From an uncultured virus (IMG/VR IMGVR_UViG_3300045923_000198) (Duplodnaviria; Heunggongvirae; Uroviricota; Caudoviricetes): a stretch of DNA of 64,000 bases. Each line of letters starts with the position of its first letter. The stretch's first letter is position 1. A program made the translations under genes and the position numbers. This document shows, piece after piece, positions 37,903-58,760 of the stretch. The stretch lies in IMG/VR virus record IMGVR_UViG_3300045923_000198; one strand, written 5' to 3'. A model generated the notes under the pieces. The model worked only from the letters and a program-made list of their open reading frames with translations, was not told where the DNA came from and made no database searches.

Positions 37903-38193
37903 ATGGACGAGACCAGGGCGCCGCCGCTCTCGGATCCCCGTTGGAAGGAGTGGTCGCAACCGCTTCTCGACTTCCTCCAGACCCCTCGGAACTGGAAGCA
38001 GCTCAACGCGTGGTGCCGCGAGACGAAGTTCAACGGGGCCAAGCTGCGCCACTGCTTGGCGTGGTTGGAGACGTTCGGGCACATCTACTCTCTCGACCAG
38101 GAAGGCGTCCTCTTTTGGGTCGCCTCGGTCATCCGTGTCGGAGAGGTGACCAGCGAATTCGGGCCGCCGGGTGAACCTTCTATGCAAAACTGA
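37903..38193 (+). CDS. hypothetical protein
   Basis: AGGAG SD; start overlaps the stop of a 7-codon uORF. Confidence 0.6.
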   Translation: MDETRAPPLSDPRWKEWSQPLLDFLQTPRNWKQLNAWCRETKFNGAKLRHCLAWLETFGHIYSLDQEGVLFWVASVIRVGEVTSEFGPPGEPSMQN

Positions 38194-38197
38194 GAGC

Positions 38198-39370
38198 GTG
38201 AGCTACCGCGTAGCCCTCCGTTTTCTACTCGCTCGGGCGCAACTCGCCCCGGCGCTTGACCAGGTCGAGCACCTCGTCAAGGCGCAGAAGTGGCGCGAGG
38301 CTCTCGATGCCATCCGGGAGTTCGGCAAGACCCTCGGAGTGTTCTTCACGGGCGACAGCTACCGAGTCAGCACCGAGTGGTTCAGCGGTCTTGACCGCGA
38401 GGACAAGGACATGTTCCTGTCCTTCGTGAAGATCCTGCACAACCTGTTCGAGATGGTCCACCCGTTCTCGGTCAACGCTCCGTGGGCCAAGGAAGACGAC
38501 CGCTGGTACGCGTGGGTTGAGTCTCTTCGTCGGGACCTGCCGCAGGTGCAGGATCTCATGCGTGACGAGAGCGATGCCTTCAAGCACGGCAAGTTCCAGA
38601 TCCTCCCGCTGAAGGGAGTGACGAACACGGACGAAGCCGTCAAGACACTCGATGAGGCATCGGGCCACATCCAGAGCAAGTTTCCGCAGGTGCTCTACGG
38701 CAAGGTCTACATCCGCAAGGACCTGCATCCCAAGGGCAGCTACGAGGCGCGACCTGGGGCGGCGAGCGGCGGTCAGGTCGCGGGCGCGTACCAGGGCACT
38801 ACGGACACGATCACGTTGAGCATGTACGCGACGCCCGAGCGCAACAGCGTCATGACCCTCATCCACGAGTTCGGGCACCGCTACCACACACGCTTCTTGC
38901 ACGGCGACTTGCGGGAGAAGTTCATCCAGCTCTCGACCGTGGGCGACATCGTGGAAGAGCACTTCTCGCTGTCCGAGCGTGAGAAGTTCGCCGACGAGTA
39001 CATCGCCCGCAAGAAGGGCTTCCGGGATGACGAGAGCTTCGGGATGGACGGTCCCGTGCACCTGTCACCGCGGGCCGACTTCTTCTTCGACAACTTCCCG
39101 CGCGACGAGTTCAAGGCGCAGGTCATCCCTATCATGCGCAAGTTCGACGACGGGGACGACTCGGTTATCCCAGCCTTTAGGAAGGCCCTCGCGCGGTCGC
39201 AGTTCGGCGGCAACCTCGGGGTCGTCAAGGACCCCGATAACGTCAAGCCGGTCTACGCGTCCACCTACGGTGAGACCTCGTGGGAAGAGAACTTCGCCGA
39301 GAGCTTCCTTGCCTTCTGCATGCACAAGGTGCTGCCCGAGCCTCTTCAGCGTTTCATGGAGTCGCTCTGA
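38198..39370 (+). CDS. zincin-like metallopeptidase domain protein with N-terminal RVALRF motif
   Basis: TLIHEFGHRYH...STYGETSWEENFAESF. Confidence 0.8.
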   Translation: MSYRVALRFLLARAQLAPALDQVEHLVKAQKWREALDAIREFGKTLGVFFTGDSYRVSTEWFSGLDREDKDMFLSFVKILHNLFEMVHPFSVNAPWAKEDDRWYAWVESLRRDLPQVQDLMRDESDAFKHGKFQILPLKGVTNTDEAVKTLDEASGHIQSKFPQVLYGKVYIRKDLHPKGSYEARPGAASGGQVAGAYQGTTDTITLSMYATPERNSVMTLIHEFGHRYHTRFLHGDLREKFIQLSTVGDIVEEHFSLSEREKFADEYIARKKGFRDDESFGMDGPVHLSPRADFFFDNFPRDEFKAQVIPIMRKFDDGDDSVIPAFRKALARSQFGGNLGVVKDPDNVKPVYASTYGETSWEENFAESFLAFCMHKVLPEPLQRFMESL

Positions 39371-40373
39371 GGGTACCCGGCAAGGGCTGGGGCTTCCAAC
39401 CGACGAGGCGATGGTTCAGATCCTTGATCCAGTCCTCGTAGTTCCGGATCTTCTGCTCGCGTCCCTCGGCGTCGAGTGGGATCTGCTCCTTCCTGCGGGT
39501 CAAAAGTTCGATGAACGACTTGGTGCCCTCGGGGCTGACCTCGAAAGGCACAAGGCCGGTACCGAAGCACGGACCTGAGTGCCAGCTCTGGTTCCAGACA
39601 CCCTTCTGTCGGTCGCCGCCTACCTGCCAGCCGTGCCGCATGAGGACGCCGCCCCCGACGAGCTTCACGTTCTTGAAGCAGCACGGGCAGGTGCCTGTGT
39701 TCTCGATGTCACGCACGGTGGACGGGCGCAAAGCGCGGTCCACGACTTCGGCGCCGACCGAGGAGAGCACTTGCGCGGCGCTTTCCTTCAAGCCGTTCTT
39801 GTAGAGGAAGGTCCAGAGCCTAGCTTGAGGCAGCTCACCGTGCGCATCCGGGGCGAACTGCAACACCTGTCCCGCCGCCGCGAGCGTCCAACCTTCCTTG
39901 CCGATCCACGCCTTCTTCATCGCGATCGTCCACTTGTGGCCAGCGCCAGAAGGGACTGGTTCCTCGTGAGGGGCCTTGCTGAGGCCCGAGACGTAGACGA
40001 TGCCAGGCTCGGGATTGCTCGGCTCGGAGGAGACCTCCGTGAACTTGTGGCGCGTGTCGTGGAGAAGCTGCTTGGCGACGTCCTCGGACATGAGCCAGAG
40101 GCGATCGTTGTAGACGTGGCTGTTGCGGAAGATGTCGGGCGAGGTGAAGGGAGCCTTCTCCCAAAAGTCGTCTTGGGAGAGCTTGACCGCGATGGGGTGG
40201 GCGGTGAGGGTCCAACCGAGGAGCGGTGCGACCTCGGAGATGACCTCCAACGAGAGCCCAGTGCCCTTGATACCCTTGGCGGCCTTGGTCAGAAAGGCGA
40301 GCGCCTCACGACTGAGGCTGGAAGCCTGGCGGTCGAGGAAACGTGAGAGCACCCTGTCGGAGATGGGGGTCAC
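39354..40373 (-). CDS. hypothetical protein with N-terminal RVLSRF motif
   Basis: GTCPCC...MRHGW...CFGTGLVPFEVS C-terminal module. Confidence 0.75.
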   Translation of the reverse strand: MTPISDRVLSRFLDRQASSLSREALAFLTKAAKGIKGTGLSLEVISEVAPLLGWTLTAHPIAVKLSQDDFWEKAPFTSPDIFRNSHVYNDRLWLMSEDVAKQLLHDTRHKFTEVSSEPSNPEPGIVYVSGLSKAPHEEPVPSGAGHKWTIAMKKAWIGKEGWTLAAAGQVLQFAPDAHGELPQARLWTFLYKNGLKESAAQVLSSVGAEVVDRALRPSTVRDIENTGTCPCCFKNVKLVGGGVLMRHGWQVGGDRQKGVWNQSWHSGPCFGTGLVPFEVSPEGTKSFIELLTRRKEQIPLDAEGREQKIRNYEDWIKDLNHRLVGWKPQPLPGTLRATP

Positions 40374-40404
40374 GTTCTGAGGGTACTACAAGAGAATCCG
40401 TGTG

Positions 40405-41856
40405 TCACCGGCTCTGGGAGAACTGCTTCAAGTGCTCGGGAAGCTCCGGTTTTTCGGCCACGCCTCCGGACATGATCTTCTCGAAGCGCTCCGTGATCTT
40501 GGGGTCCCAAGTCGTGTGCGCGGATGTGATGCCGAAGTTCGTCAACGCGAACAACTCCGCGAACTGCTCCGAGAGTGCTCCGAAGCCATCCTTGGCGCTG
40601 TACGGAGTCGTGTTCCACTCAGACCGGGCGAAGTCCACGGGGACGTGATGCTTGTGGTCGTAGCGGTGCCCCAGCTCGTGGACGATGATGTACTCGAAGC
40701 TACCGTACGACTTGCCCGAACGCGAAAGCACAGCAGGGGTTGCGCGAACGAGCAACGTGTCCGAGTCCGACTTGTACTTGCCGCTTGCGTGCGAGCCGCC
40801 GAAGTCCGCAGGGCTCGCGAGGACTACCTTGAGGCCGCCCGTGAGGGCTCCCTTGCGCCAGCCCTTCAAGTCCTTGAAGATCGCATCGAGGCGTCCAGCG
40901 TACAGGGCGAGCTTCTTCTCGTCGAAGCCGACGCTGTTGATGAAGACGTTGCCGTCGAGCTTCAGTTCTTTCGGAACGACCTTGCCGCCCTCGGAAGAGA
41001 AGTAGCGCGTGAGGGCGTCGAGCTGCGGTTCGATCTTCGACCATGCAGCCTCAATGGTGTCCCGAACACCCTTCTCTCGCTCGGGCGTGGCCATGTCGTG
41101 CATGTTGATGCCGGACTTGAGCCACCAGTGCAGCTTGAGCATCTCCTCCTTGAGCGCCTTCTGACCCTTCGGAGTCTTGGACGAGAGGATGGCGAAGTTG
41201 TCGGTCATCCAGTCCGCGATCTCAGTGCCTTTGGCTACCTGCAACGGGGAGTCCGCGAACAGTTCCTTCATCTTGCGCTGGAAGTCGTTGGCAAGAGAGG
41301 CGGTCACATAGCTTCGTGCCGCAACGCGCAGGGACAACGTCTCGTCTTCCTGCTCCGCCTCCAGGGGCAGCTTGACCACGATACGGTTCGCCCCCTTGTC
41401 GCCGCCCCAGACCACGATCTCATCGACGGTCCAGGTGACGGGGTCGATGGGTTGGTCAGCCGGCTGAGGTCCGCTGTCCTCGTACGCAAGGGTCACGTGC
41501 GGGCGGTACTCCGGGTACTTCTTGCTGTACTCAATGCCGGCGGCGTCGAAGGCAGCGCAGAGGTTCTTGCGGAACTCGTGCAGCGCCGGGGACTCGATGA
41601 GGGCGACGATAGGCACACCATCGTCCCCGGACTTGAAGGACGAGATGACCTTCGTGCTCACCTGGAACGGAGCTGTCCTACGAGCCGTGACGTATGCCAC
41701 GATGGCCGCCTGCGCCACCTGTTCGATGGGCACGTCCTTGCCAAGGTGGTGGATCGTGACGTGGTGGTGGTCCTCAGGCTCTAGCTTGCCTGGCACCTCG
41801 TACTGACCGAGGACATCACTGACCTCGGTAGGAACCTTGAGCCCGATGAACGCCAC
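40405..41856 (-). CDS. 2H phosphoesterase domain fused to zincin-like domain
   Basis: HVTI...YRPHVTL; linker LSLRVAARSY; IIVHELGHRYD...SEQFAELF. Confidence 0.82.
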   Translation of the reverse strand: MAFIGLKVPTEVSDVLGQYEVPGKLEPEDHHHVTIHHLGKDVPIEQVAQAAIVAYVTARRTAPFQVSTKVISSFKSGDDGVPIVALIESPALHEFRKNLCAAFDAAGIEYSKKYPEYRPHVTLAYEDSGPQPADQPIDPVTWTVDEIVVWGGDKGANRIVVKLPLEAEQEDETLSLRVAARSYVTASLANDFQRKMKELFADSPLQVAKGTEIADWMTDNFAILSSKTPKGQKALKEEMLKLHWWLKSGINMHDMATPEREKGVRDTIEAAWSKIEPQLDALTRYFSSEGGKVVPKELKLDGNVFINSVGFDEKKLALYAGRLDAIFKDLKGWRKGALTGGLKVVLASPADFGGSHASGKYKSDSDTLLVRATPAVLSRSGKSYGSFEYIIVHELGHRYDHKHHVPVDFARSEWNTTPYSAKDGFGALSEQFAELFALTNFGITSAHTTWDPKITERFEKIMSGGVAEKPELPEHLKQFSQSR

Positions 41857-41989
41857 GCTCCTACCGGCACACAAGAAGGCTAGTAGCGGCGGCCTCCACG
41901 GCATACGCCACGGATGTAGCTGGGATTTTACGGGACATGCTGGACCCCCAATACACCGGGCCAGGATTTCCTTTTACCCCCACTGGGCT

Positions 41990-42241
41990 GTGGAAGCACT
42001 GACTCGACTCTGTGAAGCTGTACGAACGCTCTCCCCTCAGGGAGAAGTGCGGTTCAGGGGTGTCCCTGATCGCGAAGACTATTGGGTGTGCAACGTGTGG
42101 GTCAGCGACGTGATCCTGTTTCAGTCGGCCGCCGGCCCGTTGGACGAGGTCATCGACCAGGTTCTCTCGAAGATTAAGGCCATGTCGCAGCGGGCTCTTC
42201 GTATTCTGGGACCTGACGGCAACCCACCCGACACGGTGTAA
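41990..42241 (+). CDS. hypothetical protein
   Basis: GTG start; 83 aa. Confidence 0.55.
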   Translation: MEALTRLCEAVRTLSPQGEVRFRGVPDREDYWVCNVWVSDVILFQSAAGPLDEVIDQVLSKIKAMSQRALRILGPDGNPPDTV

Positions 42242-42253
42242 GATCCGGCGCCG

Positions 42254-42589
42254 ATGGCGCCAACCGATCCTCCGGAACCGTTCATCATCATCCATGGCCG
42301 CCGTTCAGGCATGAGCGCCATGAGTGCCCTGATCAATGGCGCGCTGCGCGAGTTCACAGACGCGTTGAGCCTCGGCCCGTGGTGGAACGAGTCGTTCAGC
42401 TCGAATGAGATCCGTGTCCTTCACAAGGTCTTGCAACCACCCGCCAAGCACAAGAAGAAGCCGAAGAGGCGTCGTAGACGCAACAACCCGCGACCGAATC
42501 GCCGGCGCAAGGCACAGAAGCTACGCGCTGCGAAACAGCGCCCGACGTGGTATCAACACATCACAGATGGGGATGAAGGCCATGAGTGA
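42254..42589 (+). CDS. basic protein with C-terminal TWYQHITDGDEGHE tag variant
   Basis: K/R-rich stretch; ATG 13 nt after GGTGTA. Confidence 0.65.
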   Translation: MAPTDPPEPFIIIHGRRSGMSAMSALINGALREFTDALSLGPWWNESFSSNEIRVLHKVLQPPAKHKKKPKRRRRRNNPRPNRRRKAQKLRAAKQRPTWYQHITDGDEGHE

Positions 42590-43025
42590 CGACGACCAGA
42601 GACTTCCAGAAGGACGACCGGGTGAACTGGTCATCGGCACATCACCTGAGCGCATCCTCGTCCGCATCGCTGCCGATGGCACGTTGACCTACGGCCCCGA
42701 GTACACGCCCGACGAAGCCGCACAGGTCTTCTGGCAGGCTCTCGCTCGTCAGCGTGAGGGCGGCGAGGAGAAGATGGTGCTGCTCGCCCACGTCGAGAAG
42801 CTACTTGCACGCATCGGGGAGCAAGACTTGCGGACCGAGACGGCTCGGATGCAGGCCAGCGAGACCAAGAGCGCGCACGACGAGTTCCAGGCAGAACGCG
42901 CCACGGGCCAGCTCGAAGTTCTCGTACACGAGCTGATCGAACTGGCCCGTGGCATCGCCCTTCGTGACCGGGACAATGCCAAGGCTGCACCGCCCAAGGG
43001 CGCTCCACCGAGCACCCTGAACTAG
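42582..43025 (+). CDS. hypothetical protein
   Basis: YTPDEAAQVFW motif; coupled. Confidence 0.7.
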   Translation: MSDDDQRLPEGRPGELVIGTSPERILVRIAADGTLTYGPEYTPDEAAQVFWQALARQREGGEEKMVLLAHVEKLLARIGEQDLRTETARMQASETKSAHDEFQAERATGQLEVLVHELIELARGIALRDRDNAKAAPPKGAPPSTLN

Positions 43026-43486
43026 TATTCGTCGTCGCCCATAAGGCGCCGCCAGGCCGTGAGGATGATGCCCTCCTTGAGCCTGGCCTTCGCGTGCTTG
43101 ATGACGCGTTCGCAAGTCTTGACGTCGAAGCGGCCGATGTGCGCGGTCTCCTTCGTCATCCCGAGCTTCTGTGCGAGCCACTTGTAGGCGTCGTCCCGGC
43201 TCATCTTCCCGGTCTTCCAGAGCTGGTCGAAGATCTCGTGAGCGCGCATGCGGGCCTCACGTGTGAGCGTGTCCCCCGGGGTGCCCATCGGCGAACCGTC
43301 CGGGTGTGCCCCGTGTGTTCCACGGCACGTCGGGTAGCGTGCGCACCCGTAGAAGTGGCCGGTAGGCAGAGCGATGAGGCGCATCTTGGACATGCCGCAC
43401 TCGCCGCAGGTGAGGTCATCCCTTTCGCCAGGGAACCGCGGTCCGACGTCTTCGAACCCGATGTCCTCGATCATCCCGGGGAGCAT
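43022..43486 (-). CDS. zinc-finger protein (DUF3268/topoisomerase C4-like) with C-terminal TAWRRLMGDDEY tag
   Basis: CGECG...FYGCARYPTC..HGAHPDG.PMGTP...AH..FD.LW...AYKWLA...HIGRFD..C. Confidence 0.8.
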   Translation of the reverse strand: MLPGMIEDIGFEDVGPRFPGERDDLTCGECGMSKMRLIALPTGHFYGCARYPTCRGTHGAHPDGSPMGTPGDTLTREARMRAHEIFDQLWKTGKMSRDDAYKWLAQKLGMTKETAHIGRFDVKTCERVIKHAKARLKEGIILTAWRRLMGDDEY

Positions 43487-43488
43487 GG

Positions 43489-43932
43489 TCAGAGCTGCGC
43501 GGGGATCGTGACCTTGTCCGTCTTCGACGACTGGTAGACGTCCTCTGCCGTGACCCACGAGCACGGCGTTGGCGTGGGGTCGAGAACGATGGAGATGGTG
43601 TCATCGGTCTCACCCTTGACGAGCGAGAACTCGTACAGCCTGGGCTGCTTGCGACGCGTGAAGCATTGGATGCGGTAGTGGCCGTACCCGGTGAGGTCCC
43701 GCTCCCGGACGCGCATCTCGACAGCCTGGGAGCTGGTTGGCGTGCGGATGGTCGTGCGTTGTGTGGCCGAAGCAGCGATGGGGATGGCCACCGGCTTGTC
43801 GTCGGTGCCGTTCGCACGGAAGATCACGAGATCTTCCTCGTCGGCGGTTGTCATGGTCTCGATGCGCACGAAGCCTTCGCCGTCGATCGTCTCGACCTCC
43901 GGCGCATCATCGGTGAGGGTCATACGGATCAT
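43489..43932 (-). CDS. hypothetical protein
   Basis: ATG 10 nt after GGTGTA. Confidence 0.7.
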   Translation of the reverse strand: MIRMTLTDDAPEVETIDGEGFVRIETMTTADEEDLVIFRANGTDDKPVAIPIAASATQRTTIRTPTSSQAVEMRVRERDLTGYGHYRIQCFTRRKQPRLYEFSLVKGETDDTISIVLDPTPTPCSWVTAEDVYQSSKTDKVTIPAQL

Positions 43933-43960
43933 GTCCGGCAATTACACCGAACAGCGTCCC

Positions 43961-46909: not shown

Positions 46910-46936
46910 GCTTCCTCTTATTCCCTCAGTGAGGGT

Positions 46937-47326
46937 ATGACTGGTCAGGAACTCAGCGATCTCAAGGCCCGTATGTGGCAGGCGCACCACTACCACTGGA
47001 AGGTTGGCAAGGCCAACGAAGTGGCAGAGGAACTTGCAGCGATGGGCGCAACGATGCCGAAGGGTGTCGAGGCGCCCACCGCTCTGCACCTGCTCAAGAT
47101 GATCGAGCAGATCGAGGGTGGGGCTCCGGCTCCGAAGCCTGTGGTCTCGCCCCCGAAGCCCAAGGCGGAACCGCCGATGGTCAAGGTGGAGCCCAAGGTG
47201 GAAGCACCCCCGCCGCCCGCCCCCAAGGCCGAAGAGCCCCCGCAGGTCGAGTCGCACGAAGCTGGCGATGAAGACCTGGCCGAGATGCTCAACGTGCTCG
47301 GCAACCAGGAAATCAAGACGTCCTGA
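46937..47326 (+). CDS. Pro-rich hypothetical protein
   Basis: GAGG SD; TCTTAT motif 15 nt upstream. Confidence 0.7.
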   Translation: MTGQELSDLKARMWQAHHYHWKVGKANEVAEELAAMGATMPKGVEAPTALHLLKMIEQIEGGAPAPKPVVSPPKPKAEPPMVKVEPKVEAPPPPAPKAEEPPQVESHEAGDEDLAEMLNVLGNQEIKTS

Positions 47327-47625: not shown

Positions 47626-49134
47626 ATGAGCGAGGAACCGATGCGTAGCCTTGCCGATTCGCTGACCTTGCGCGTGCTTCGCCGGGCTGTCGGTGCGAAC
47701 TCGACAAAGCCGATGGTTCTCAATGTCGTGGCGCGCTATCGGCAGGCCATGGAGTTCTCGTCGCCCGAGACGATGAAGGAATACCTTCACGAACACCCGG
47801 GTGCCGATCCGGGCAATCACTGGGTCAAAACCCCGGGTGAGCACGAGAAGAAGCCCGAGGGCGAGAAGAAGGAAGAGAAGCCCGAAAGTGAGGGCGAGAG
47901 CGAAGGCAAGGAGAAGAGCAAGCCGAAGCTCGAAGTCCCCAAGTCGAAGCCCATGGCGAGGCCGAAGGAGCAGGCTCGTGTCGGCGTTGCTGGCAACGAT
48001 GTGCCGCCCCCGCCCAAGCAGCTTCCGCGTCTGGCGAACCTTCGCGAGGACGAGAAGAAGTACGAAGAGCGGATGAACGACGCCTTCGAGAAGAACCCCG
48101 AGGGAGCAGCGAAGGCGTTCCTGGAGTCGTGCGAGAAGAACAACTGGGTCTTCGAGACTGACGCTGCGAAGAACCTACTCCCCGAGTGGTCTCGTCCGGA
48201 CCTCCCCAAGGACGAGAAGACAGTCCATCCCGAGCGTGCCGAGTTCCGAGGCAAGTACAACGCCGTTCTCCACCAAGCGGCCAACGCCATCGCGAAGCGG
48301 GCGTTCGTCAGCCGTCTGGACGAGATCGCGAAGATGCCCGAGGACAAGCGCAAGGTGCTCGTGACCTCGGGCGGTGTGGCGGCGGGCAAGGGGTCAGCGC
48401 TTGCTGCCCAGCCGGATCTCGCCAAGAGCGTTTCCGCAACGTGGGACGCGGCGGGAGAGCAGAACGCAACCGAGAACGAGTGGGTCCTCGAAGAGTGCAA
48501 GAAGCGCGGGATTCGACCCACCTTCCTTTTCGTCCACGCGGACCCGAAGCAGTCCTGGCCGGGCGTTGTCGAGCGGGCCAAGGGGATTGGCCGTATGGTG
48601 GACGCGCAGCTCTTCGCGGACTCCTACGCGGTGGGGTCGAAGAACTTCGCCGACTTCCACGACAAGAACAAGGACGAGGCGGACTTCGTGTTCGGCGTCT
48701 TCCAAGGACGCGGCAAGCCCGCGAAGATCACCGACAGCATGCCTGAAGAAGCGCTCAAGCTCGATGCCGACGACATCTACGAGCACGCCTCGAAGTACAT
48801 CGACGAGAAGAAGGACGACCTTCCGAGCTACATCTACGACGGTGCCACGATCGGGCGTAGGGCGTTCAAGAACGTCTCGGACAAGAACGCCAGCTACCCC
48901 GAGCTTACCTTCCGCGTCGCTGCCAAGCACATCAGAGGCCGAGCAATCATGGCAAACCCCAAGATGCCCCCGCAGGACAAGAAAGAGCTGGACCGGATTC
49001 GGAAGCTCTTCGAACAAGGTCTGTCTGAAGCCTCGAAGGATCCGAAGAAGATGGAAGAGCTTCGGATCAAGCAGGAACAGTTGATCAAGCCGTGGGAAGA
49101 CTACATCAAGGGCTGGAAGGCTCCGAAGGGTTGA
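47626..49134 (+). CDS. zeta-toxin-like P-loop kinase domain protein
   Basis: LVTSGGVAAGKGS, WD, FVHADP...VVERA...GRMV; start uncertain (47626 or 47641). Confidence 0.72.
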   Translation: MSEEPMRSLADSLTLRVLRRAVGANSTKPMVLNVVARYRQAMEFSSPETMKEYLHEHPGADPGNHWVKTPGEHEKKPEGEKKEEKPESEGESEGKEKSKPKLEVPKSKPMARPKEQARVGVAGNDVPPPPKQLPRLANLREDEKKYEERMNDAFEKNPEGAAKAFLESCEKNNWVFETDAAKNLLPEWSRPDLPKDEKTVHPERAEFRGKYNAVLHQAANAIAKRAFVSRLDEIAKMPEDKRKVLVTSGGVAAGKGSALAAQPDLAKSVSATWDAAGEQNATENEWVLEECKKRGIRPTFLFVHADPKQSWPGVVERAKGIGRMVDAQLFADSYAVGSKNFADFHDKNKDEADFVFGVFQGRGKPAKITDSMPEEALKLDADDIYEHASKYIDEKKDDLPSYIYDGATIGRRAFKNVSDKNASYPELTFRVAAKHIRGRAIMANPKMPPQDKKELDRIRKLFEQGLSEASKDPKKMEELRIKQEQLIKPWEDYIKGWKAPKG

Positions 49135-49159
49135 ACGAGGCGGTGTAGGAGAGCCCTAC

Positions 49160-50917: not shown

Positions 50918-50984
50918 GCGCCTCCACGTGAGCCGTATGGGCCCAGCGTGGCCGTCCCTACACCACTTGTGGCCGTGCCATCAT

Positions 50985-51458
50985 GTGGAGCCGATCAGCA
51001 AACGGGTAGCCCTACGGTACGCGGCCAAAGCTGCCGAGACCGCGGAGTCCTTCGCGGCCGCTTTCTTCGCCAAGCACCCGCATTTGCAGAGGTTCGCGCC
51101 TCGACGTGTGCTGGACAAGGCGGCAGGAGGCTCCGGCTCCCATCCCGAAGCTCGCCAGAGCGGCAACGAGATCTGGCTCTTCCCCAAGTTCTGGCACCTC
51201 GACGACAAGATGCGCGACTTCGTGTTCGCCCACGAGCTTGGGCACTACACGCAGAGCGAGACTCTACCCGGGTCGAAGTTCATCGACGCGTGCAAGGAAC
51301 TTGACATCGACCCGTGGGACACGTCGAGCCTTCCGTTCGGACAGGGCAACATGGACGAGGCGTTCGCGGACAGCTTCGCAACCTACTTCCTCGATCACGG
51401 GGACCTGCACCACCGCTACCCCAAGTGGGAGACCCTGGTACATCGTGTCGTGGGTTGA
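50985..51458 (+). CDS. small zincin-like protein with N-terminal RVALRY motif
   Basis: FVFAHELGH...DEAFADSFATY. Confidence 0.75.
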   Translation: MEPISKRVALRYAAKAAETAESFAAAFFAKHPHLQRFAPRRVLDKAAGGSGSHPEARQSGNEIWLFPKFWHLDDKMRDFVFAHELGHYTQSETLPGSKFIDACKELDIDPWDTSSLPFGQGNMDEAFADSFATYFLDHGDLHHRYPKWETLVHRVVG

Positions 51459-51768: not shown

Positions 51769-51773
51769 CCCAA

Positions 51774-52100: not shown

Positions 52101-53769
52101 CCAGCGTGCGCATGAGCGACGCCACCCGCTTCATGGTCGCATCGTTCGGGGGCGGCGCCTTGCTCGGGTGTGGAAGCAACATCGCGAGGTAGAACGCCTC
52201 CTGCGCGGTCAGCTCGCTCGGCTTCTTGTGGAAGTAGGTCTGCGTCGCGTTGCCGATGCCGTAAAGGTTGGGGCCGTACTGCACCACGTTGAGGTACAGC
52301 TCCATGATCTGGTCCTTCGAGAGGCAACTCTCCAGCGCCATCGTCAGGAACGCCTCCTGGACCTTGCGCCCGATGGTCTTGGACCGCGTCAGGAAGACGT
52401 TCTTCGCGAGCTGCATCGAGATGGTCGAGCCGCCACGAATGAAGCGCCCCTTTTCCACGTCCGCCTTGAGGGAGTTCTCCAGCGCGGCGGGCACGAACCC
52501 GTGATGCGTGGGGAACGCCTTGTCCTCCATGTTGATGACCGCCATAGGCATCACCGGAGAGATGTCCTTGAGCGGCGTCCAGCCCTGCGTCCCGGGACCC
52601 GCGACGGCGACGGCAACATCGTCCCCCTCCCCGTAGTCCACGTAGATCGTGTGCTCGAACGGCTTCTTGAGCGCCTCGATGGACTTCACGGGGCAGACCG
52701 CCTTGCAGGTGTTGGTCATCGAGACCTTCACCTCCGGCTTGAAGTGCACGTCGAACCCGAGGCGGCCGGTGAAGCGCAGGCCATCGAACGCCTTGGCCTT
52801 CAATTCCTTCGGCAGCGTCTTCAACCAGTCGTTGCACTCATTGTCACCGGAGACGCCATACGTCTTCGGGTCGAGAACGAGTGAGGTGCTCCCCACCTGA
52901 ACCGTGAGGGTCTGCTCGCGCACATGCTCGGGGTTGAATGACGTGCGGATCCCCTCAATGGTCAACGGCTGGTCGAAGACACGGTTGGCGAGAAACGACA
53001 GGCTGTTGGCGTTCACGTCCACACGTGAAGGCTTGCCTTCCATCGCCCAGTAGTTCAGACGCACCTGGTCCAAGGTCGTCTGTCCTGAGCTGATCTCCTT
53101 GACCGTGACGACCCTGGAGTTGGATGCTTCCCGGTCGTCCGTGTAGTCCACGTCCTCGAAGAAGACGTTGTCCGGCTCCATGTCGTCCGGGATGAGGGAG
53201 GCGACCTTGCTGCCCATCCCGGGGATCGATGACAGCATGATGCGGACGATCCCCAGATGAGCGTGCCGCTTGTCACGCGACACGCACCCGGGACGCTCCC
53301 CCCACGCGAAGACACCGTTGTCGTCGTGGTAGGCTTGGAAGCTCTCGAAGCAAGCTTCGCTGTCGTTCACGCGCAGCCCGTCGATGGCGACGGAGTAGTC
53401 CCCCTTGTGGACCGTTCCGGAGAGCCCGCTGGCTTCGATGCGGTGCTTCTCGGCGCCTTCGCTGCTGCTCCCCTGGCCCTCTCCGAGAACGTAGTCGAAC
53501 TTGCCACCCTCGATCTTGACGGACTCGTCATTGATCGAGACCGTCACGAGCGGGAAGGTACCGTGAAGGTTCGCCTTCTCCACGAGGACGTCGTGCAAGA
53601 CCACCTCGTGACGGTGCACCTCGATGGCACCGCGCACGTGGACGTAAGGCGCCCGCTCCGCGATCTTGTTCCGCACGTACGTGGGCGCGTAGCGGTACAG
53701 CCCGTAGGCGCTCAACCCGAGGACGGCGACGGACGCCCCTGCGATCACGAGACCCTTGCGCAGCTTCAT
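52036..53769 (-). CDS. monofunctional peptidoglycan glycosyltransferase (GT51, MtgA-like)
   Basis: EDKAFPTHHGF, RGGSTISMQLAKN, RKVQE, LYLNVVQYG; N-terminal TM. Confidence 0.9.
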   Translation of the reverse strand: MKLRKGLVIAGASVAVLGLSAYGLYRYAPTYVRNKIAERAPYVHVRGAIEVHRHEVVLHDVLVEKANLHGTFPLVTVSINDESVKIEGGKFDYVLGEGQGSSSEGAEKHRIEASGLSGTVHKGDYSVAIDGLRVNDSEACFESFQAYHDDNGVFAWGERPGCVSRDKRHAHLGIVRIMLSSIPGMGSKVASLIPDDMEPDNVFFEDVDYTDDREASNSRVVTVKEISSGQTTLDQVRLNYWAMEGKPSRVDVNANSLSFLANRVFDQPLTIEGIRTSFNPEHVREQTLTVQVGSTSLVLDPKTYGVSGDNECNDWLKTLPKELKAKAFDGLRFTGRLGFDVHFKPEVKVSMTNTCKAVCPVKSIEALKKPFEHTIYVDYGEGDDVAVAVAGPGTQGWTPLKDISPVMPMAVINMEDKAFPTHHGFVPAALENSLKADVEKGRFIRGGSTISMQLAKNVFLTRSKTIGRKVQEAFLTMALESCLSKDQIMELYLNVVQYGPNLYGIGNATQTYFHKKPSELTAQEAFYLAMLLPHPSKAPPPNDATMKRVASLMRTLVNRGSLDPDVLTMTQDSDVAP

Positions 53770-53809
53770 CGCACGAGGGTGCCTCTATCTCGACCGTTTC
53801 GTCAAGTAG

Positions 53810-54463
53810 TCAGGGAACGAGTTGACCGAGAGATCGCCTGAGATTTTCGCGCGCCCGCACCTCGAAGATCGACCTGAAGCGGGATGTCACGTAGATGTGC
53901 GAACGTGCCAGGAAGTCATTGAGGATCTTGCCTCGCCCGAGCCTGTACTGCTCCCACGGGACGAACTCGTACTCGGCGCGGATGTCCTTCTCGTACTGGT
54001 CAAAGACCTCCGGGGTCTCCCCGAGAATCGAGAGGTCGATGTCCACCATGTACTGGTAACGGTCGGCCATGGTCTCGACGCTGGCCGCGTGCTTCGTGTA
54101 CCCAATCATGTCCGCGACCTCTGCGAGAAGCTTCTCGTTGAGCCCCATCCGACGCCCCGCCCGGTGCATCGCGAAAGTGCTCTCTTCCTCGTTGTTCGAG
54201 CGGCCAGGAATGTAGACGTAATCGTGCCACCAGAGCGCCAATTCCACGTGGTTCAAGTCCGCTCCCACGGGCACGTGAGCGTCCAGGAGGTCCAGGCACG
54301 CCTTGATGTGCACGAGCGAGTGGTAGTGCCGGACAGGCCCGTAGTACGCCTTCACGAGGTCCGTGTAGACTTCGTCCGCGACGTCCATGTCCGCGCCGAG
54401 ACGCTTGGCGAAGAGCATCCAGCGGGTTTCTAGCTGCTCGGAAAGCATCGTCTCGGTGGTCAT
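53810..54463 (-). CDS. HD-superfamily phosphohydrolase
   Basis: RHYHSLVHI, WWHDYVY, NEEES, DIDLSILG, IRAEY. Confidence 0.85.
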   Translation of the reverse strand: MTTETMLSEQLETRWMLFAKRLGADMDVADEVYTDLVKAYYGPVRHYHSLVHIKACLDLLDAHVPVGADLNHVELALWWHDYVYIPGRSNNEEESTFAMHRAGRRMGLNEKLLAEVADMIGYTKHAASVETMADRYQYMVDIDLSILGETPEVFDQYEKDIRAEYEFVPWEQYRLGRGKILNDFLARSHIYVTSRFRSIFEVRARENLRRSLGQLVP

Positions 54464-55092
54464 CACTTGGTCTCCTTGGGGTCGTCCAGGAGCTTCTTCA
54501 AGCCGCGGGGGTTGATGATACCACCATGACCCCCGGGTCTTGGCGTACGACCGTCGATGTACGCGCTCACGTCGGCTCCGTAGCGGCAACCGATGAGCCC
54601 TACGTCCACCTCCTGGTCGATCTTGCGGATGATGCCTGTCGGATCGATGTGAACCGTCACGCGCCAGGACATCGAGTCGCAAGTCATCTCCCCGGTGGTC
54701 ACACGGATGGAGGACGGTCGCAGCGCGTGCACGACGTTGAGTGCCGCGTTGTTCCATGGCCTCCCGTTGAGGAACTCCAAGACCGGGATGACCGTGCCGC
54801 CCCAACGGTCCAACTTCTGAGGCTGCACACTCCAGGTGGAGCGGTACTTGTCGGATTCGTCAGTCTCCGTCCAACGGTGGGGTTGCAGCTCCTTGTCCCA
54901 CTCTTCGGCCTCCGGACTGCCGGAGACGACCTCGTAGCACTTCCAGCCGATAGGGACCTGCTTCGGGTCATCCCCGGGCAGGACCGTGACGCCTTCTCGT
55001 CGTGGAATCACGATGTCCGGTTTGGGGGCATCGACCGTCAGTCTAAGCTGCGCGGGATCCGTGATGAGACGGTTCTTCCAGTCGTCACTCAT
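54463..55092 (-). CDS. hypothetical protein with peptidase inhibitor I78-like C-terminal region
   Basis: RPSSIRV..GEMTCD...RVTVHID. Confidence 0.6.
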   Translation of the reverse strand: MSDDWKNRLITDPAQLRLTVDAPKPDIVIPRREGVTVLPGDDPKQVPIGWKCYEVVSGSPEAEEWDKELQPHRWTETDESDKYRSTWSVQPQKLDRWGGTVIPVLEFLNGRPWNNAALNVVHALRPSSIRVTTGEMTCDSMSWRVTVHIDPTGIIRKIDQEVDVGLIGCRYGADVSAYIDGRTPRPGGHGGIINPRGLKKLLDDPKETK

Positions 55093-55108
55093 GCTCGGCA
55101 CTACACCG

Positions 55109-56218
55109 TCAGTCGAAGACCGAGGACACAGAACCGAGCATGACACGGATGCGGTGTCGGCTGCCAAGTTGGTAGGTCTCGAACTCGCTGTAGCTCTTCG
55201 GCGTGTACGGCCAGGAGTCGCCCTTGCGGCCCGTGAACGTGACCGTGTAGCTCTCCTCGCGACCGGACTCACGCTCCTGCTCCCCATCCTGCAAGGGCGG
55301 CGGAGTCGTGTCGGGCCACCTGACATCGGACGTGGTGCCGTTCGCCATGGCGTCTCGGTTGTGCCCCCAACCCCAGAAGTCCCACTCGTAGAAGTCCGCG
55401 TAGATCGGCAGGTCTGCGTAGTCGTTCACGCTGCATGTCTTCGGGTCGCAGATCGTGGAGCAGACAGGGTCCGCCTGCGTGCAGCTCTTGAAGCCGTTGT
55501 TCAGCTTCGTGCACACGGGCTTGGGCGTCGTGCAACTGCTCCTGTCCGTGCGGCAGTTTTTCGTGCCACAGAGGGACGCGTCGGTCACACGGTGATGGCC
55601 GACCAGGACATGGTAGTTCCACCCGTTCTGACGCTGCCCGTCGTTGACGAGGTTCAGCGCACCCGAGGGCACGGTGAAGCCGCTGTCATGCCGCAGCGAG
55701 TAGCGGTCGATGTGGATGGTGCGCTGCCAGGCGAGAGCCGTGACCGTGCCGTGCAGGTCGAGGGGCTTGAAGAGGAAGTAGCCGCCGATGATGAGCGCCA
55801 GGACGATCGGGATAGCGATGGCCCACCATGGCAGGCCCTTGGAACGACGGCGCGTTTCCAAGATGGGAGGGGGAGCGTAAGACGACATGGTCTTCCGCCC
55901 TTCAGGCCGGGTCGGAGCTTCAGAGGAGAATGAGCGTGCGCGGGGAGTCTCCCCCTGGTCCTGCGAAACGCCGCACTGCACGCACTCCCCGCTGTCCCGA
56001 CGCTCGGCCGAGCCGCAGAAACGACACTTCCAGTCCACCCCCGCAGCCGCCTGCTCGACGAAGGACTCGTCGGCCACGGGCGTCAGACCGCCGTCGTCGA
56101 TGTCCCCATCCACGTCTGTCTTCGGCTTCCCGCAGACCTCGCAGACCTTGAGGTGGCCCTCGTTGAGGTGCTTGTTCTCACACTCCCACTTCAACTCGAC
56201 GAAGAACTGACGCGACAT
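55109..56218 (-). CDS. membrane protein with N-terminal Zn ribbons and Cys-rich extracytoplasmic region
   Basis: WECEN, CEVCG, WKCRFCG, CVQCG; one TM; NGFKSC. Confidence 0.8.
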   Translation of the reverse strand: MSRQFFVELKWECENKHLNEGHLKVCEVCGKPKTDVDGDIDDGGLTPVADESFVEQAAAGVDWKCRFCGSAERRDSGECVQCGVSQDQGETPRARSFSSEAPTRPEGRKTMSSYAPPPILETRRRSKGLPWWAIAIPIVLALIIGGYFLFKPLDLHGTVTALAWQRTIHIDRYSLRHDSGFTVPSGALNLVNDGQRQNGWNYHVLVGHHRVTDASLCGTKNCRTDRSSCTTPKPVCTKLNNGFKSCTQADPVCSTICDPKTCSVNDYADLPIYADFYEWDFWGWGHNRDAMANGTTSDVRWPDTTPPPLQDGEQERESGREESYTVTFTGRKGDSWPYTPKSYSEFETYQLGSRHRIRVMLGSVSSVFD

Positions 56219-56229
56219 GCCCCTATTCT

Positions 56230-56245
56230 TACACCAGGTGGTGTA
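56230..56245. promoter_or_regulatory. divergent GGTGTA motifs
   Basis: 11 nt to ATG 56218(-) and 11 nt to ATG 56257(+). Confidence 0.75.
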
Positions 56246-56256
56246 TCGTGGGCACC

Positions 56257-56529
56257 ATGTCCGAGCTAACGGGATGGACGAAGGTTGGGGACAAGATCGA
56301 AGGCAAGGGCAAGTGGGTCGTCTACCGCCTGAAGAAGGGGTTACTGCCCACGCCCACCATCGTTGGCGAGGAGTTCGAGCCGACCGATGCGAAGAAGGCC
56401 CTGCGTGAGTATCAGAAGCGCGCCACGGAGATGACCACGAGCAACCGCAGCGGGGGTCTCTGGCTCGTGAACCCGGAAGGCGTGGTCGCCAGCGTCGTCT
56501 TCATCGCCCCGCAAATGCGCTTCTATTGA
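56257..56529 (+). CDS. hypothetical protein
   Basis: ATG 11 nt after GGTGTA. Confidence 0.65.
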   Translation: MSELTGWTKVGDKIEGKGKWVVYRLKKGLLPTPTIVGEEFEPTDAKKALREYQKRATEMTTSNRSGGLWLVNPEGVVASVVFIAPQMRFY

Positions 56530-58729
56530 GCCTCGTCAGGAACCTGTCGAGCACGCGCTGCGCGATGATCTTCCGGTCCTTCATGGCCGCGAACAGCTTG
56601 TCGTAGAGCGGCATGATCTCCTTCTCGAAGCGTGCCTGCTCGATGTACTTGGGGTCGTCGTACTGGAGCCACGTGAGCCAGGGGTTGCTCACGCCCTGCC
56701 GTGCGAGCTTCGTGTAGACGTACTGCTCGGTCACGCGCGCCCAGACCTCTGTGGCGCTGTGGTAGTACGTGAGCTTGCGGTTGTCGCCGTCCATCATCTG
56801 CGTGTACCGCTTGGTCGCCTCGGCAAGCAGCTCCGGAGGCACCTCGGACTTGTACTGCGCGTCCAGAGCCTTCGCGTACGGGTGATCCTTGGGCAAGTCG
56901 TAGCGGCTCTTGCCCGTGAGCGTCTCAACGGCCTTGTCCCCGGTGAACTCCATCAAGTTCCCAAGCATGTCCTCCCACCGCTTGTAGTCGGGGGTGTTGC
57001 GGATCGCTTTGAGAACGTCTGACAGCTCGGGAAGAGTCTTGTCGATGTACGCGCGGTTGGACTTGTCGGTCACGTAGTCGAGGGGAACGCCTGTGTTGGC
57101 GACGCCACCTGGACCCGAGTACACGCCAAATTCACGCTTCATCTTCTCCACGTGCTCGGGGTTGTCGCGCGCCGCGAGGTCACGTGACACCATGTCGTCC
57201 AGATAGTGGCTCAGCTCGTGCGCCAGCACACCCTCGTAGTCCTCACCGAACGTCACCCTCGGCTGCCACGTACGGCGATCGTCCCACTGGAAGTAGTGGG
57301 CCTTGGCCATGAAGCTCGATGACCCGCCGAAGTTGAACGCCAGCTTCTTTCCGTGCTTGCCACAGAAGCCCTTGCCGAAGACCGTCTCCAGATCGCTCAC
57401 CGCGCGAGAGACCCGCCCAAGAAGCTCGTGCCGCTTCTCCTCCGGGATGTCATCCGAGAACTCGATCGGCCCCGTGTCATGCCGCGCCTGGAACTCTTCA
57501 GGGGTCGTTGGCTGCCAGGTGAGGGGGACGAGCGGGATGCCCTCTTTGATGGCGATGTTCTTCTGCGCCTCGTCGATCATCCGCTTGATGTCGGTCACGG
57601 CGTCGCCGGTCAGGATGCGGCGGTTCACCGCTTCCTGGATGATGCGCAGGAGCGTGTCGAACGAGCGCGACTTCTCGATGAGCGTCAGGAGTTTCTTGTA
57701 CTCCATCGGCACGCTCTTGGGCTTCACCGGCTTGTCGTCAGGCTTGTTGTCCCTGCGCTTCCGTGATGGTCCCTTGGTACGCTGTACCGCGTACTCAGCG
57801 GACCTGCGTACGTAGTCCGAGACCTGCTTGAGGATCCACTCAGTTGGGCCGTCAGGGTCGTTCTTGGACTCGCGCTTGAGCACCACATCCAGGGGCTCTT
57901 CTTGAGCGGCTCCGGCCGGTGTTCCAGAGCGGCGGATGGTCTCGACGTTGACGCCAGCCTCTCGCTGGACCTTCGCAAGAGCTGCCGCGTTCTCCTTGTA
58001 GAGCTTCGAGCGCGTATCGGCATCGGTCGTCTGCCACGCGTTCATGATCTCGGCACGTTCAGCGGTGAGGCGCTCGACTTCTGCACGCAAGGCGGCCTTC
58101 TGACCCTCGTCCATCTCGAAGAACGCGCCGGGCGTGGTTTCCTCGTGCGGTTCTTCCGAGACCTCCGAAGAGGGCAGCTTGAGGATCTTGCGCAGTAGCG
58201 TTCGAATCGGCGCGGGTACGACCTCAAGACGGATGACGTCCTTGAGCATCTCCTCACGCTCGCGAGACCGCCAACCGTACTGGTCGTCCTCGGAAGGGTT
58301 GTCCTCCCCGATCACGTAGATCGCGTGGCGAATCAGACGGAACACCCTCGCGTCCACGTCCGTGTGCTTCAAGTGCTTCAAGCCGCGCAGGATGCGCACG
58401 ACCGCAACAAGAGCCTGTCGATCTTGCGTGGGACTCAGATGCTCGATCGCCCGGAGCCCTGGCGCTGCAGGCTTTGCACCGGCTCCCAGAGTGCCGTCAT
58501 CGATCGCCTCGCCAAGCACCTTGCAGGCAGCAACGAACTGGCCGTGAAACTGACGGCGCAGAGCGAGGAACTTCCGGATCTCTTTCTCGTCGAAGAAGGG
58601 CGCTGCGACGATCTTGCTCTGCGCGATCACAAGAGCGATGCCGGCTGTGACCGTGGAGACCGCATCGTCCAGGCTCATAGCGGCAGAGGGCTCGTCGGCG
58701 GCCCATCTGTGGTCGTAGGTGTAGTCCAC
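56501..58729 (-). CDS. large protein with zincin/LPD1-like C-terminal domain and terminal RVLDRF motif
   Basis: LAHELSHYLD...YYHSATEVWARVTEQYV; start uncertain. Confidence 0.78.
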   Translation of the reverse strand: MDYTYDHRWAADEPSAAMSLDDAVSTVTAGIALVIAQSKIVAAPFFDEKEIRKFLALRRQFHGQFVAACKVLGEAIDDGTLGAGAKPAAPGLRAIEHLSPTQDRQALVAVVRILRGLKHLKHTDVDARVFRLIRHAIYVIGEDNPSEDDQYGWRSREREEMLKDVIRLEVVPAPIRTLLRKILKLPSSEVSEEPHEETTPGAFFEMDEGQKAALRAEVERLTAERAEIMNAWQTTDADTRSKLYKENAAALAKVQREAGVNVETIRRSGTPAGAAQEEPLDVVLKRESKNDPDGPTEWILKQVSDYVRRSAEYAVQRTKGPSRKRRDNKPDDKPVKPKSVPMEYKKLLTLIEKSRSFDTLLRIIQEAVNRRILTGDAVTDIKRMIDEAQKNIAIKEGIPLVPLTWQPTTPEEFQARHDTGPIEFSDDIPEEKRHELLGRVSRAVSDLETVFGKGFCGKHGKKLAFNFGGSSSFMAKAHYFQWDDRRTWQPRVTFGEDYEGVLAHELSHYLDDMVSRDLAARDNPEHVEKMKREFGVYSGPGGVANTGVPLDYVTDKSNRAYIDKTLPELSDVLKAIRNTPDYKRWEDMLGNLMEFTGDKAVETLTGKSRYDLPKDHPYAKALDAQYKSEVPPELLAEATKRYTQMMDGDNRKLTYYHSATEVWARVTEQYVYTKLARQGVSNPWLTWLQYDDPKYIEQARFEKEIMPLYDKLFAAMKDRKIIAQRVLDRFLTRLNRSAFAGR

Positions 58730-58760
58730 GCCTCTGTAGGTTGAAAAACGGACCACCGGG

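Follow-up and report, generated by a model that had tools for sequence, protein, structure and literature searches.

A short arginine-containing peptide at the ends of otherwise unrelated proteins of an uncultured huge phage

The stretch of DNA considered here (the window) makes up the first 64 kb of one phage contig of 362,937 bp and 62.6% G+C, recorded in IMG/VR as the uncultured virus IMGVR_UViG_3300045923_000198. Between positions 38178 and 58749 it holds a group of genes whose otherwise unrelated products share a peptide of the form RVxxR[FY], and which have a short DNA element 14 nt before the start codon. What does such a peptide do, and does the DNA element belong with it? The initial annotation of the window read the two together as a regulon of late genes with an upstream motif of its own, whose products would carry a capsid-targeting or protease-processing signal and be injected to counter host defences. 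We followed both features across the contig and into related phages. A codon-usage model trained on the same contig called 382 genes, which cover 89% of the sequence and encode 106,911 aa; genome-wide counts are over these 382 predicted proteins, window coordinates are those of the contig, and genes are mostly referred to below by a single coordinate.

A terminal tag on unrelated proteins

All eight peptides listed in the initial annotation were found in the translations at the places given for them. Over the whole predicted proteome, the pattern RV..R[FY] occurs 15 times, where 1.67 occurrences would be expected from composition. The narrower RV[AL].R[FY] occurs 12 times against an expectation of 0.29, and [ST].RV[AL].R[FY] five times against 0.04. 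Nine strict copies lie beyond the window (70657, 86699, 87604, 88026, 231810, 296695, 318883, 333285 and 350258), and the set is genome-wide rather than confined to the window. The position of the copies was assessed with a generalised pattern, [RKQT][VI][AVLGW].R[FYWH], which was widened after variants had been seen and for which the protein interior serves as the control. This pattern matches 14 times in the first 25 residues and twice in the last 25 (0.50 expected in each case), and four times in the interior (4.56 expected). The excess is confined to protein ends and involves ∼16 carriers. The N-terminal placing is robust to the choice of start codon, since in 12 of the 14 N-terminal copies every possible ATG, GTG or TTG start lies at most 17 aa before the motif (all but 50985 and 86699).

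The synonymous codons vary among the copies (AGG, CGC, CGT, CGG and CGA for Arg; GTG, GTA and GTC for Val), so that selection acts on the peptide rather than on the DNA or RNA. When the tags are masked, BLAST at E ≤ 1e-3 finds just four similar pairs among 20 carriers (39354/318883, 71385/88026, 38198/322534 and 47674/86699), leaving at least 14 unrelated groups. The consensus, of about ten residues, is h-x-x-[RK]-V-A-x-R-[FYWH]-[LA]. In AlphaFold models with high overall confidence (mean predicted local distance difference test, pLDDT, of 88.4 for the zincin-like protein 38198–39370 and 91.2 for the Zn-ribbon protein), the tag forms an N-terminal helix with pLDDT of 51–58 joined to cores above 90; in 38198–39370 residues 1–10, within a helix of residues 2–13, have a pLDDT of 51. 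The hydrophobic moment of the tag, at 0.58, is above both the mean (0.28) and the 90th percentile (0.49) for the proteome. The tag is thus modelled as a detached, low-confidence amphipathic helix on a flexible end. These results confirm a genuine tag, terminal and portable, on otherwise unrelated proteins.

The carriers within the window illustrate this variety. The gene at 38198–39370 (+) encodes a 390-aa zincin-like protein (HEFGH ... EENFAESF) with SYRVALRFL at its N-terminus, the core RVALRF being aa 4–9 (nt 38207–38224). The adjoining gene at 39354–40373 (−) encodes a 339-aa protein with a C-terminal CxxC Zn-ribbon region and an N-terminal SDRVLSRFL, with RVLSRF at aa 7–12 (nt 40338–40355). 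It is a paralogue of 318883–320085 (BLAST E = 9e-14 with the tags masked), it matches no Pfam or NCBIfam family, and a search of the ESM Atlas gave no usable match. At 40405–41856 (−) lies a 483-aa fusion of a 2H phosphoesterase (aa ∼18–153) to a zincin-like domain (HELGH at aa 393). Its tag variant, RVAARS-Y (aa 177–183, nt 41311–41328), falls within the annotated SLRVAARSY (aa 175–183), between the two domains. The phosphoesterase assignment made by the initial annotation is solid by its match to PF13563 (48.7 bits against a cut-off of 27, E = 1.1e-12), and PF02834 is also matched. The Acb1 family, PF23474, is matched as well (29.1 bits, cut-off 27, E = 9e-7), and TIGR02258 scores below its cut-off; activity against the cyclic oligonucleotide-based anti-phage signalling system (CBASS) is only predicted.

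Two further window carriers have uncertain starts. The gene at 50985–51458 (+) encodes a small zincin-like protein of 157 aa (HELGH ... DEAFADSF) with SKRVALRYA at the N-terminus of the frame that opens at GTG 50985 (RVALRY at aa 7–12, nt 51003–51020); starts are possible up to 42 aa upstream, and the caller picked 51108. The gene at 47626–49134 (+) encodes a P-loop protein of ∼500 aa in which NVVARY occupies aa 33–38 (nt 47722–47739). Here the start called was 47674; if the ATG at 47713 were used instead, the tag would be N-terminal. The annotation had listed three peptides in this protein, and TLRVLRRAV, LNVVARYR and TFRVAAKHI are all present, although the first and last are indistinguishable from chance. 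Its description as a zeta-like kinase was not supported: a P-loop, GGVAAGKGS, is visible, but the Zeta_toxin family PF06414 is matched at 16.9 bits, below its cut-off of 22.3 (E = 0.0046). This protein and that encoded at 86699–87607 (−) are 72% identical over 36 aa. In both, a 45-residue module, FxSxEALxKYLxxHPxADxSKHxVKKPG, directly follows the tag (aa ∼30–75 and aa 12–58, respectively); in the former it reads FSSPE..YLHEHPGAD after NVVARY. A search of 1.84 billion representatives gave 407 clusters with the module at E ≤ 1e-3 and, in the best 150 of these 407, an RV-type tag lies within the 16 residues before 49 of 129 module copies. It has no Pfam family and is mostly N-terminal, often in tandem repeats.

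The largest of these carriers, at 56501–58729 (−), is a 742-aa protein with a HELSH motif and an LPD1 domain (aa 650–718; PF18796 at threshold, 27.2 bits against 27). It bears the tag near its other end, AQRVLDRFL lying 20 aa from the C-terminus (RVLDRF at aa 725–730, nt 56540–56557). A 159-aa cupin-like protein encoded at 7215–7694 (−) has RVAARF at aa 15–20, but is a doubtful member because the peptide lies inside its match to phrog_4786, ‘cysteine dioxygenase’ (aa 13–138).

A HExxH motif with a downstream E-x-F-A-[ED]-x-F is common to 38198, 50985, the C-terminal half of 40405–41856 and 56501–58729, and the same pair is found beyond the window in 88026, 71385, 108532 and 322534. In the zincin alignment H223, E224, H227, E364 and E368 are invariant. 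The domain has no Pfam, PHROG or NCBIfam match, and its fold matches are weak and all to gluzincins: a lethal factor hidden Markov model at E = 0.09, and collagenases and lethal factor in Foldseek at E ≥ 5e-3 (the collagenases at E = 5e-3 with a TM of ∼0.2). Foldseek gave no PDB match at E ≤ 1e-3 for either the zincin or the Zn-ribbon model. About half of the tag carriers have no zincin-like domain. Among these is a small topoisomerase-IB-like match, 70657–71388, with a C-terminal tag; the remaining carriers match no Pfam, PHROG or NCBIfam family. As the annotation had stated for the zincins and the 2H phosphoesterase, these domains are of kinds typical of phage polyvalent injected proteins, and so is LPD1.

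The tag is conserved across a clade of huge phages, and is swapped between termini. The zincin 38198–39370 has 68 homologues on metagenomic contigs, some of 335–490 kb. A strict tag lies in the first 40 aa of 42 of the 68, and in none of the 68 in an internal control window. By eye, a recognisable tag starts 31 of 40 homologues inspected, three of them with two tandem copies. In an alignment of 30 sequences R4 and R8 are ≥90% conserved, a value biased upward by the choice of sequences with complete N-termini. For the Zn-ribbon family (318883/39354), 22 of 56 homologues are tagged in the first 40 aa and 30 are without a tag, again with 0 of 56 in the internal control; the untagged homologues begin directly at the conserved core, LDEKMKALLLKLRKG. 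In the uncultured phage LR745208.1, a 485-kb relative analysed whole, RV[AL].R[FY] occurs five times against 0.38 expected. There the Zn-ribbon orthologue has its tag at the C-terminus, ending ..KVAMRHLASIVAKRHLAR; the 2H-zincin orthologue has a tag-like HKVARRAL at its N-terminus, starting MHTLLVHKVARRAL; and the topoisomerase-IB-like orthologue ends ..TVASRWQDRFLD, its gene adjoining the portal gene. On a further IMG/VR contig (L021, 407,634 bp), the open reading frame (ORF) immediately ahead of the zincin orthologue starts MSTLSRVAQRYL and another ends ..SRRVAARYLETS (positions 434 and 9446), indicating that tags recur at both ends there too. Outside these metagenomic relatives, tblastn with the zincin against 50,697 phage records gave no match except LR745208.1.

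Upstream elements and genomic setting

The five hexamers described in the initial annotation are present, each exactly 14 nt before a GTG: TTCTAT at 38178–38183 (+) before 38198, a late-promoter-like pyrimidine-TAT element; TCTTGT at 40388–40393 (−) before 40373; TCTTGT at 41871–41876 (−) before 41856, in the context CTAGCCTTCTTGTG; ACTTGT at 50965–50970 (+) before 50985, the weakest match, which overlaps a TACACC (the reverse of GGTGTA); and GTTTTT at 58744–58749 (−) before 58729, a weak, T-rich site without a TAT or TGT end. The two similar sites it reported were also confirmed, TTTTAT at 11788–11793 (+), 14 nt before the ATG at 11808 (a 51-aa ORF and a doubtful gene), and TCTTAT at 46916–46921 (+), 15 nt before the ATG at 46937 (an untagged protein of 129 aa).

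Across the genome, YYTRT peaks 14–15 nt before starts (13 genes, compared with about 0–4 at other offsets). At offsets 13–16 it precedes five of 14 strictly tagged genes and 12 of 366 others (Fisher p = 1.5e-4), a test that is partly circular because three of the five tagged genes had defined the motif. A simpler count, of hexamers with at least three T at offset 14 or 15, gives 10 of 16 tagged genes against 52 of 364 others (p = 2.5e-5); with only the genes outside the window, the peptide and the DNA motif still co-occur, in five of 11 against 44 of 281 (p = 0.023). An iterated position-weight matrix of the element was discarded when it drifted into CTTCTTCTC coding antisense, and the regular-expression and T-count tests were used instead.

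Three classes of upstream element can be distinguished. Nine genes of class A (79189, 79511, 80105, 316640, 318883, 320590, 352977, 359011 and 359370, all beyond the window) share a near-identical, sigma70-like GGTTGATTC-N14-GGGTTGTAGT-N6-ATG, with the expected start site on the ATG. With this spacing their mRNAs would be leaderless, and the genes are probably early. In class B, cGGTGTAg lies 9–14 nt upstream of 41 of 380 genes, often in divergent palindromic pairs (TACACC..GGTGTA); window examples are at 4230–4241, 11754–11761, 12222–12232, 17405–17415 and 49137–49147. The genes behind it include clpX and many for replication and nucleotide metabolism, and it is a candidate middle promoter whose transcripts would be almost leaderless. 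The observation that tagged genes lack GGTGTA was borne out (0 of 14 strictly and 0 of 19 loosely tagged genes), although at the overall frequency of 41 in 380 this is not significant alone. Class C is a pyrimidine tract ending in TAT or TGT, often after TAG, and the most enriched intergenic hexamers are TTTTAT (40x) and TCTTAT (24x). Non-coding YYYTAT lies within 50 nt upstream of 20 genes, of which 10 are in the structural block at 127–238 kb. The structural genes include the portal gene, a gp80-like head-fibre gene and 236572, which heads the operon that runs to the TerS-like and TerL genes; in these the element is at 18–47 nt. As judged from their sequence, the annotated hexamers are class C sites at a fixed spacing of 14–15 nt, and class C is probably a late promoter, because it precedes the portal, head-fibre and terminase-operon genes.

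These results change the picture of a separate regulon. The initial annotation had asked whether structural genes share the upstream motif, and some do have the same element, at 18–47 nt; it is therefore not the tagged genes' own. Of the 17 genes with YYTRT at offsets 13–16, 12 are not strictly tagged, and untagged genes with an element at 14–15 nt are 11808, 46937, 84126, 263513 and 293479. In addition, one tagged gene, 318883, lies behind a class A promoter, contrary to a single regulon. Thus co-expression with the head genes is plausible for the tagged genes from the shared element, whilst late expression as a property of the whole set would not extend to 318883. An RNA-labelled run yielded the whole 20-kb stretch within one contig of 42.7 kb, as did the DNA run, and is uninformative on starts, strands and timing.

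Pfam and PHROG scans of the contig proteins indicate a huge tailed phage. The head module contains an HK97-type major head protein (214134–215015; phrog_2522, E = 3e-51), a Q-rich scaffold-like protein and a head protease (217200–218711), and the portal (224889–226745); the large terminase, TerL, is at 229105–231129, and a baseplate J protein was also found. The scans further identified a bacterial-type replisome, sigma-region-4 proteins, GroEL, ribosomal protein L7/L12, RtcB, ClpX, the actin-like ‘volactin’ and many NAD- and nucleotide-related enzymes. By major head protein, the nearest records are LR745208.1 (82% identity), Tunturiibacter phage Tunturi_5 (46.7%) and Bacillus phage G (38%). 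This family has 1974 homologues at E ≤ 1e-20, the best 120 of which are all at least 85% identical. The contig has 93 of its 382 proteins in common with LR745208.1, including the actin-like protein at 52% identity. At the DNA level, blastn of 38000–42000 found no match among the 50,697 phage records.

Several other genes deserve mention in their own right. The highly conserved major head protein gene is adjoined by a gene for a LAGLIDADG homing endonuclease (213056–213805, −). The actin-like ‘volactin’ protein (186698–187711, −) matches PF25216 at E = 2.5e-74, and the unusual families include a multiubiquitin domain protein and ThiF-like E1 and JAB proteins (loci listed with it, 212805–213059 and 292004–293316, both −). 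E1_FCCH domains are found in two giant proteins of the structural region (114295–118857 and 122174–124759, both −). A set of NAD-salvage and RNA-repair type, comprising PRPP-synthetase-like, NAMPT-like, NADAR, Swiss-Army-Knife HAD-domain and R2K ATP-grasp proteins, has genes in the window at 60329–62647 (+), 10782–11231 (−), 1035–1529 (−) and 24932–25735 (−).

Possible functions of the tag

We favour, at a probability of about 40%, the reading that the tag is an address label that loads cargo into the virus head. It would be a portable amphipathic docking helix of about ten residues on the flexible N- or C-terminal end of varied accessory proteins: lethal-factor-like zincins, the 2H-zincin fusion, and topoisomerase-IB-like, Zn-ribbon, P-loop kinase-like and small proteins. 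Through its two conserved arginines and its Val/aromatic face it would attach to a single receptor that the phage encodes and that lies in the procapsid during assembly; the scaffold, the HK97-type shell and the portal are candidates. Packed together with the DNA, the cargo would be delivered into the next host. Injected enzymes, for example the Acb1-like 2H phosphoesterase, could be active there ahead of all phage gene expression. From sequence we infer the late-promoter role of the element, the receptor in the procapsid and the packaging and injection of the cargo.

This preference for capsid loading has several grounds. It follows in part from analogy with the capsid targeting sequence of phage T4 and the cargo-loading peptides of encapsulins. 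The promoter element is common to head genes, and a tagged gene for a 126-aa protein (231810–232190) immediately precedes the TerS-like and TerL genes within the tightly packed operon 236572→229105. In LR745208.1 the gene for the C-tagged topoisomerase-IB-like protein sits beside that for the portal, and tag-like internal copies are found in the head-module proteins 219030 and 220833. Finally, the cargo repertoire matches that of proteins for which Iyer et al. 2017 (PMC5512222) predict packaging and injection.

Other observations weigh against capsid loading. Most tagged genes are in accessory regions outside the head module, and no tag was found in the major head protein, scaffold, protease, portal or terminase. 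No shared cleavage motif follows the tags in the carrier sequences, unlike in T4. The class A promoter of 318883 would be early, and three tagged genes lie directly downstream of the phage clpX. The presence of two further terminal motifs in the same phage, described below, means that terminal peptides need not all mean ‘capsid’. Nor was a tag found in the cultured relatives, of which Tunturi_5 was scanned and Bacillus phage G left out: the DNA pattern MGNGTNGCNNNNMGNTWY matches Tunturi_5 twice, as does its reversed control, both matches being in ORFs of ∼50 aa. The corresponding numbers for pattern and control are 15 and 2 in the genome studied, and 5 and 5 in LR745208.1. The idea that the tag mimics a C-terminal coat-binding motif of the scaffold was rejected, as the scaffold ends (LSNLWSSAPDV..F) are conserved but different.

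The main rival to capsid loading is that an AAA+ unfoldase, the ClpX of phage or host, recognises the tag or docks on it, leading to timed ClpXP degradation or to unfolding and remodelling. Terminal peptides are how ClpX chooses its substrates, and degrons and adaptor tails occur at either terminus, as does the tag; moreover, four tag copies read L-R-V, like the ClpX-binding tail of SspB, LRVVK. The phage encodes a full ClpX (88778–90061, −), in which the N-terminal zinc-binding domain, the pore loop (GYVG) and the ClpP-docking loop (LGF) are all present, and a separate 94-aa protein (67431–67715, +) ends in a ClpX-type C4 zinc finger, the only part of ClpX that it has. The tagged genes 88026, 87604 and 86699 follow clpX directly on the same strand, with a weak variant, 90662, upstream. 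On the other side, 88026 has a late-type element of its own and is not simply co-transcribed with clpX, and the strict conservation of a docking-type helix over 27–70% identity exceeds that of known degrons. LR745208.1 keeps the tags on its orthologues but lacks a phage-encoded ClpX homologue (tblastn, E ≤ 1e-3), although the same search detected its protease, TerL, sigma factor, GroEL and actin-like genes. We therefore regard an unfoldase tag as unlikely. The two readings could also merge, since Iyer et al. 2021 (PMC7824862) suggest a possible role for phage ClpX in virion assembly or in the translocation of unfolded proteins. It is somewhat easier to believe, though still doubtful, that the tag docks proteins onto a hub other than the capsid, such as an actin-like (volactin-type) filament, a replication or transcription factory, another phage protein or, as an amphipathic anchor helix, the membrane, and is one of several sorting peptides in the phage. 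The tag is strongly amphipathic and often stands ahead of the widespread 45-residue module, and the proteins common to the contig and LR745208.1 offer many candidate receptors. At least three distinct families of terminal motif suggest a general use of short docking peptides, two of them being carried by 56501–58729. However, the tests made singled out no candidate hub, and the promoter link points to the head genes. In the tag, R, V, R and the aromatic residue are nearly fixed, whereas membrane-targeting helices do not usually keep their individual residues.

That the motif is instead a cleavage or recognition site of a phage peptidase, the prohead protease or the zincin-like domains, which would trim leaders or split domains, seems distinctly improbable. 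Its placing has some appeal: exactly between the 2H and zincin domains in 40405–41856, just N-terminal of the zincin domain in 38198, 50985 and 88026, just C-terminal of it in 56501–58729, and internal in the two head-module proteins. Zincin domains are also predicted by Iyer et al. 2017 (PMC5512222) to process multidomain polypeptides. Yet most copies lie 3–16 aa from an end, or 2–18 aa from the C-terminus, where a cut would release nothing sizeable. As noted, about half of the carriers are without a zincin domain, and the motif is missing from the major head protein, scaffold and portal. The remaining reading, that the copies have no common function and reflect chance in a proteome rich in Arg, Val and Ala, descent of paralogues or a DNA-level element in the 5′ ends of genes, is close to refuted. 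The high G+C content does make R, V and A common, some carriers are the paralogues named above, and the copy in 7215 is within its family domain. Against this, the counts are 9- to 40-fold over expectation and at termini only, the codons vary, at least 14 unrelated groups are involved, and the tag is both conserved and shuffled among orthologues.

The two additional terminal motifs bear on several of these readings. The first, Y-x-Y-D-[RH]-R right after the initiator, was observed seven times against 0.00 expected, with none internal. The genes listed with it are 56501–58729 (−) in the window, whose protein has YTYDHR at aa 3–8, and, elsewhere in the genome, 109887, 111574, 176928, 265627, 276537, 281914, 283413 and 314187. 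Of these, 176928 encodes a UvrD-like helicase that also ends ..AYDRRPS, and 276537 and 281914 are preceded by the pyrimidine-TGT element at 14–15 nt. The second, C-terminal [WH]xRLM..DD, occurs five times at C-termini against 0.01 expected, and nowhere else. All five copies are in the window, as TA[WH]x-RLM-xx-DD[EY] tails of otherwise unrelated proteins (6446–6982, −; 27160–28413, +; 33271–33771, +; 35538–35984, −; 43022–43486, −), one example ending ..TAWRRLMGDDEY, and here too the codons vary. This acidic-aromatic tail presumably resembles replisome- or clamp-binding tails. It is conceivable, and we offer it tentatively, that the clade runs a protein-sorting code of at least three terminal peptides (RVAxRF, N-terminal YxYDRR and C-terminal AWxRLMxDDEY) with different phage receptors and different destinations. 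Sets of unrelated enzymes would be sent, for example, to the capsid interior, the replisome or turnover, and the exchange of cargo would bring gain, loss and duplication of tags and their transfer from one terminus to the other. Such a code would be a modular addressing system not described for bacterial viruses.

If capsid loading is correct, sequence alone would define the proteins injected with the DNA across a clade of uncultured huge phages, among them the Acb1-like 2H phosphoesterase and many lethal-factor-like zincins. The question of what huge phages carry in their heads would become testable with one peptide, and the tag would offer a simple, transferable means of placing foreign proteins in large capsids.

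Comparison with known systems

The internal proteins IPI–III and Alt of phage T4 have an N-terminal capsid targeting sequence, which is cut by the prohead protease at a defined site, and the packaging of proteins that bear it has been demonstrated. As in T4, the tag is a short terminal peptide on unrelated cargo proteins of a single phage, among them anti-defence or host-modifying enzymes, and the genes would be expressed with the head genes, late expression being plausible here. The sequences are unrelated, however, and the T4 signal is only N-terminal and is cleaved, whereas the tag is N- or C-terminal, sometimes duplicated and without a visible cleavage motif; packaging, demonstrated for T4, is predicted here. 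Encapsulin cargo-loading peptides are likewise short, are found at either terminus of diverse enzymes, and bind the inner face of an HK97-fold shell. The phage major head protein is also HK97-type and extremely conserved, but the encapsulin peptides are Gly/Leu-rich and extended, in contrast to the Arg-rich helix of the tag.

Two other kinds of terminal peptide come less close. ClpX degrons and the SspB tail can also be at either end, and the phage clpX gene is beside three tagged genes, but the likeness in sequence is limited to L-R-V in four copies and the tag persists in LR745208.1 without a phage ClpX. The Tat (twin-arginine translocation) signal motif, S/T-R-R-x-F-L-K, consists of adjacent twin arginines followed by a hydrophobic region, and its N-terminal position, Ser/Thr, Arg and F-L are echoed in S-x-R-V-x-x-R-F-L. 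A Tat signal peptide was rejected: the arginines of the tag are at i and i+4, polar sequence rather than a hydrophobic region follows, and C-terminal copies exist.

With regard to the cargo, a parallel exists with the polyvalent proteins of phages and conjugative elements, for which Iyer et al. 2017 (PMC5512222) predict capsid packaging and injection. In that account, their commonest domain is a zincin-like metallopeptidase unified with lethal factor, in agreement with the weak gluzincin and lethal factor matches found here, and the 2H phosphoesterase and LPD1 domains are likewise common to both. Polyvalent proteins string these domains together in one giant polypeptide, whereas here they are mostly on separate tagged proteins, only the 2H-zincin and LPD1-zincin fusions remaining. 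No such tag is described in the available parts of the accounts of polyvalent proteins (PMC5512222) or phage ClpX (PMC7824862), and a text search of about 8.4 million papers and preprints found none with the tag strings. The tag therefore resembles a known kind of signal, the capsid-targeting or cargo-loading peptide. What is unusual is its independence of position, its duplication, its gain and loss among orthologues and its coexistence with two other terminal motifs. If it does direct loading, its working at either terminus and its swapping among orthologues would make it a clearer example of a viral ‘address label’ than the T4 signal.

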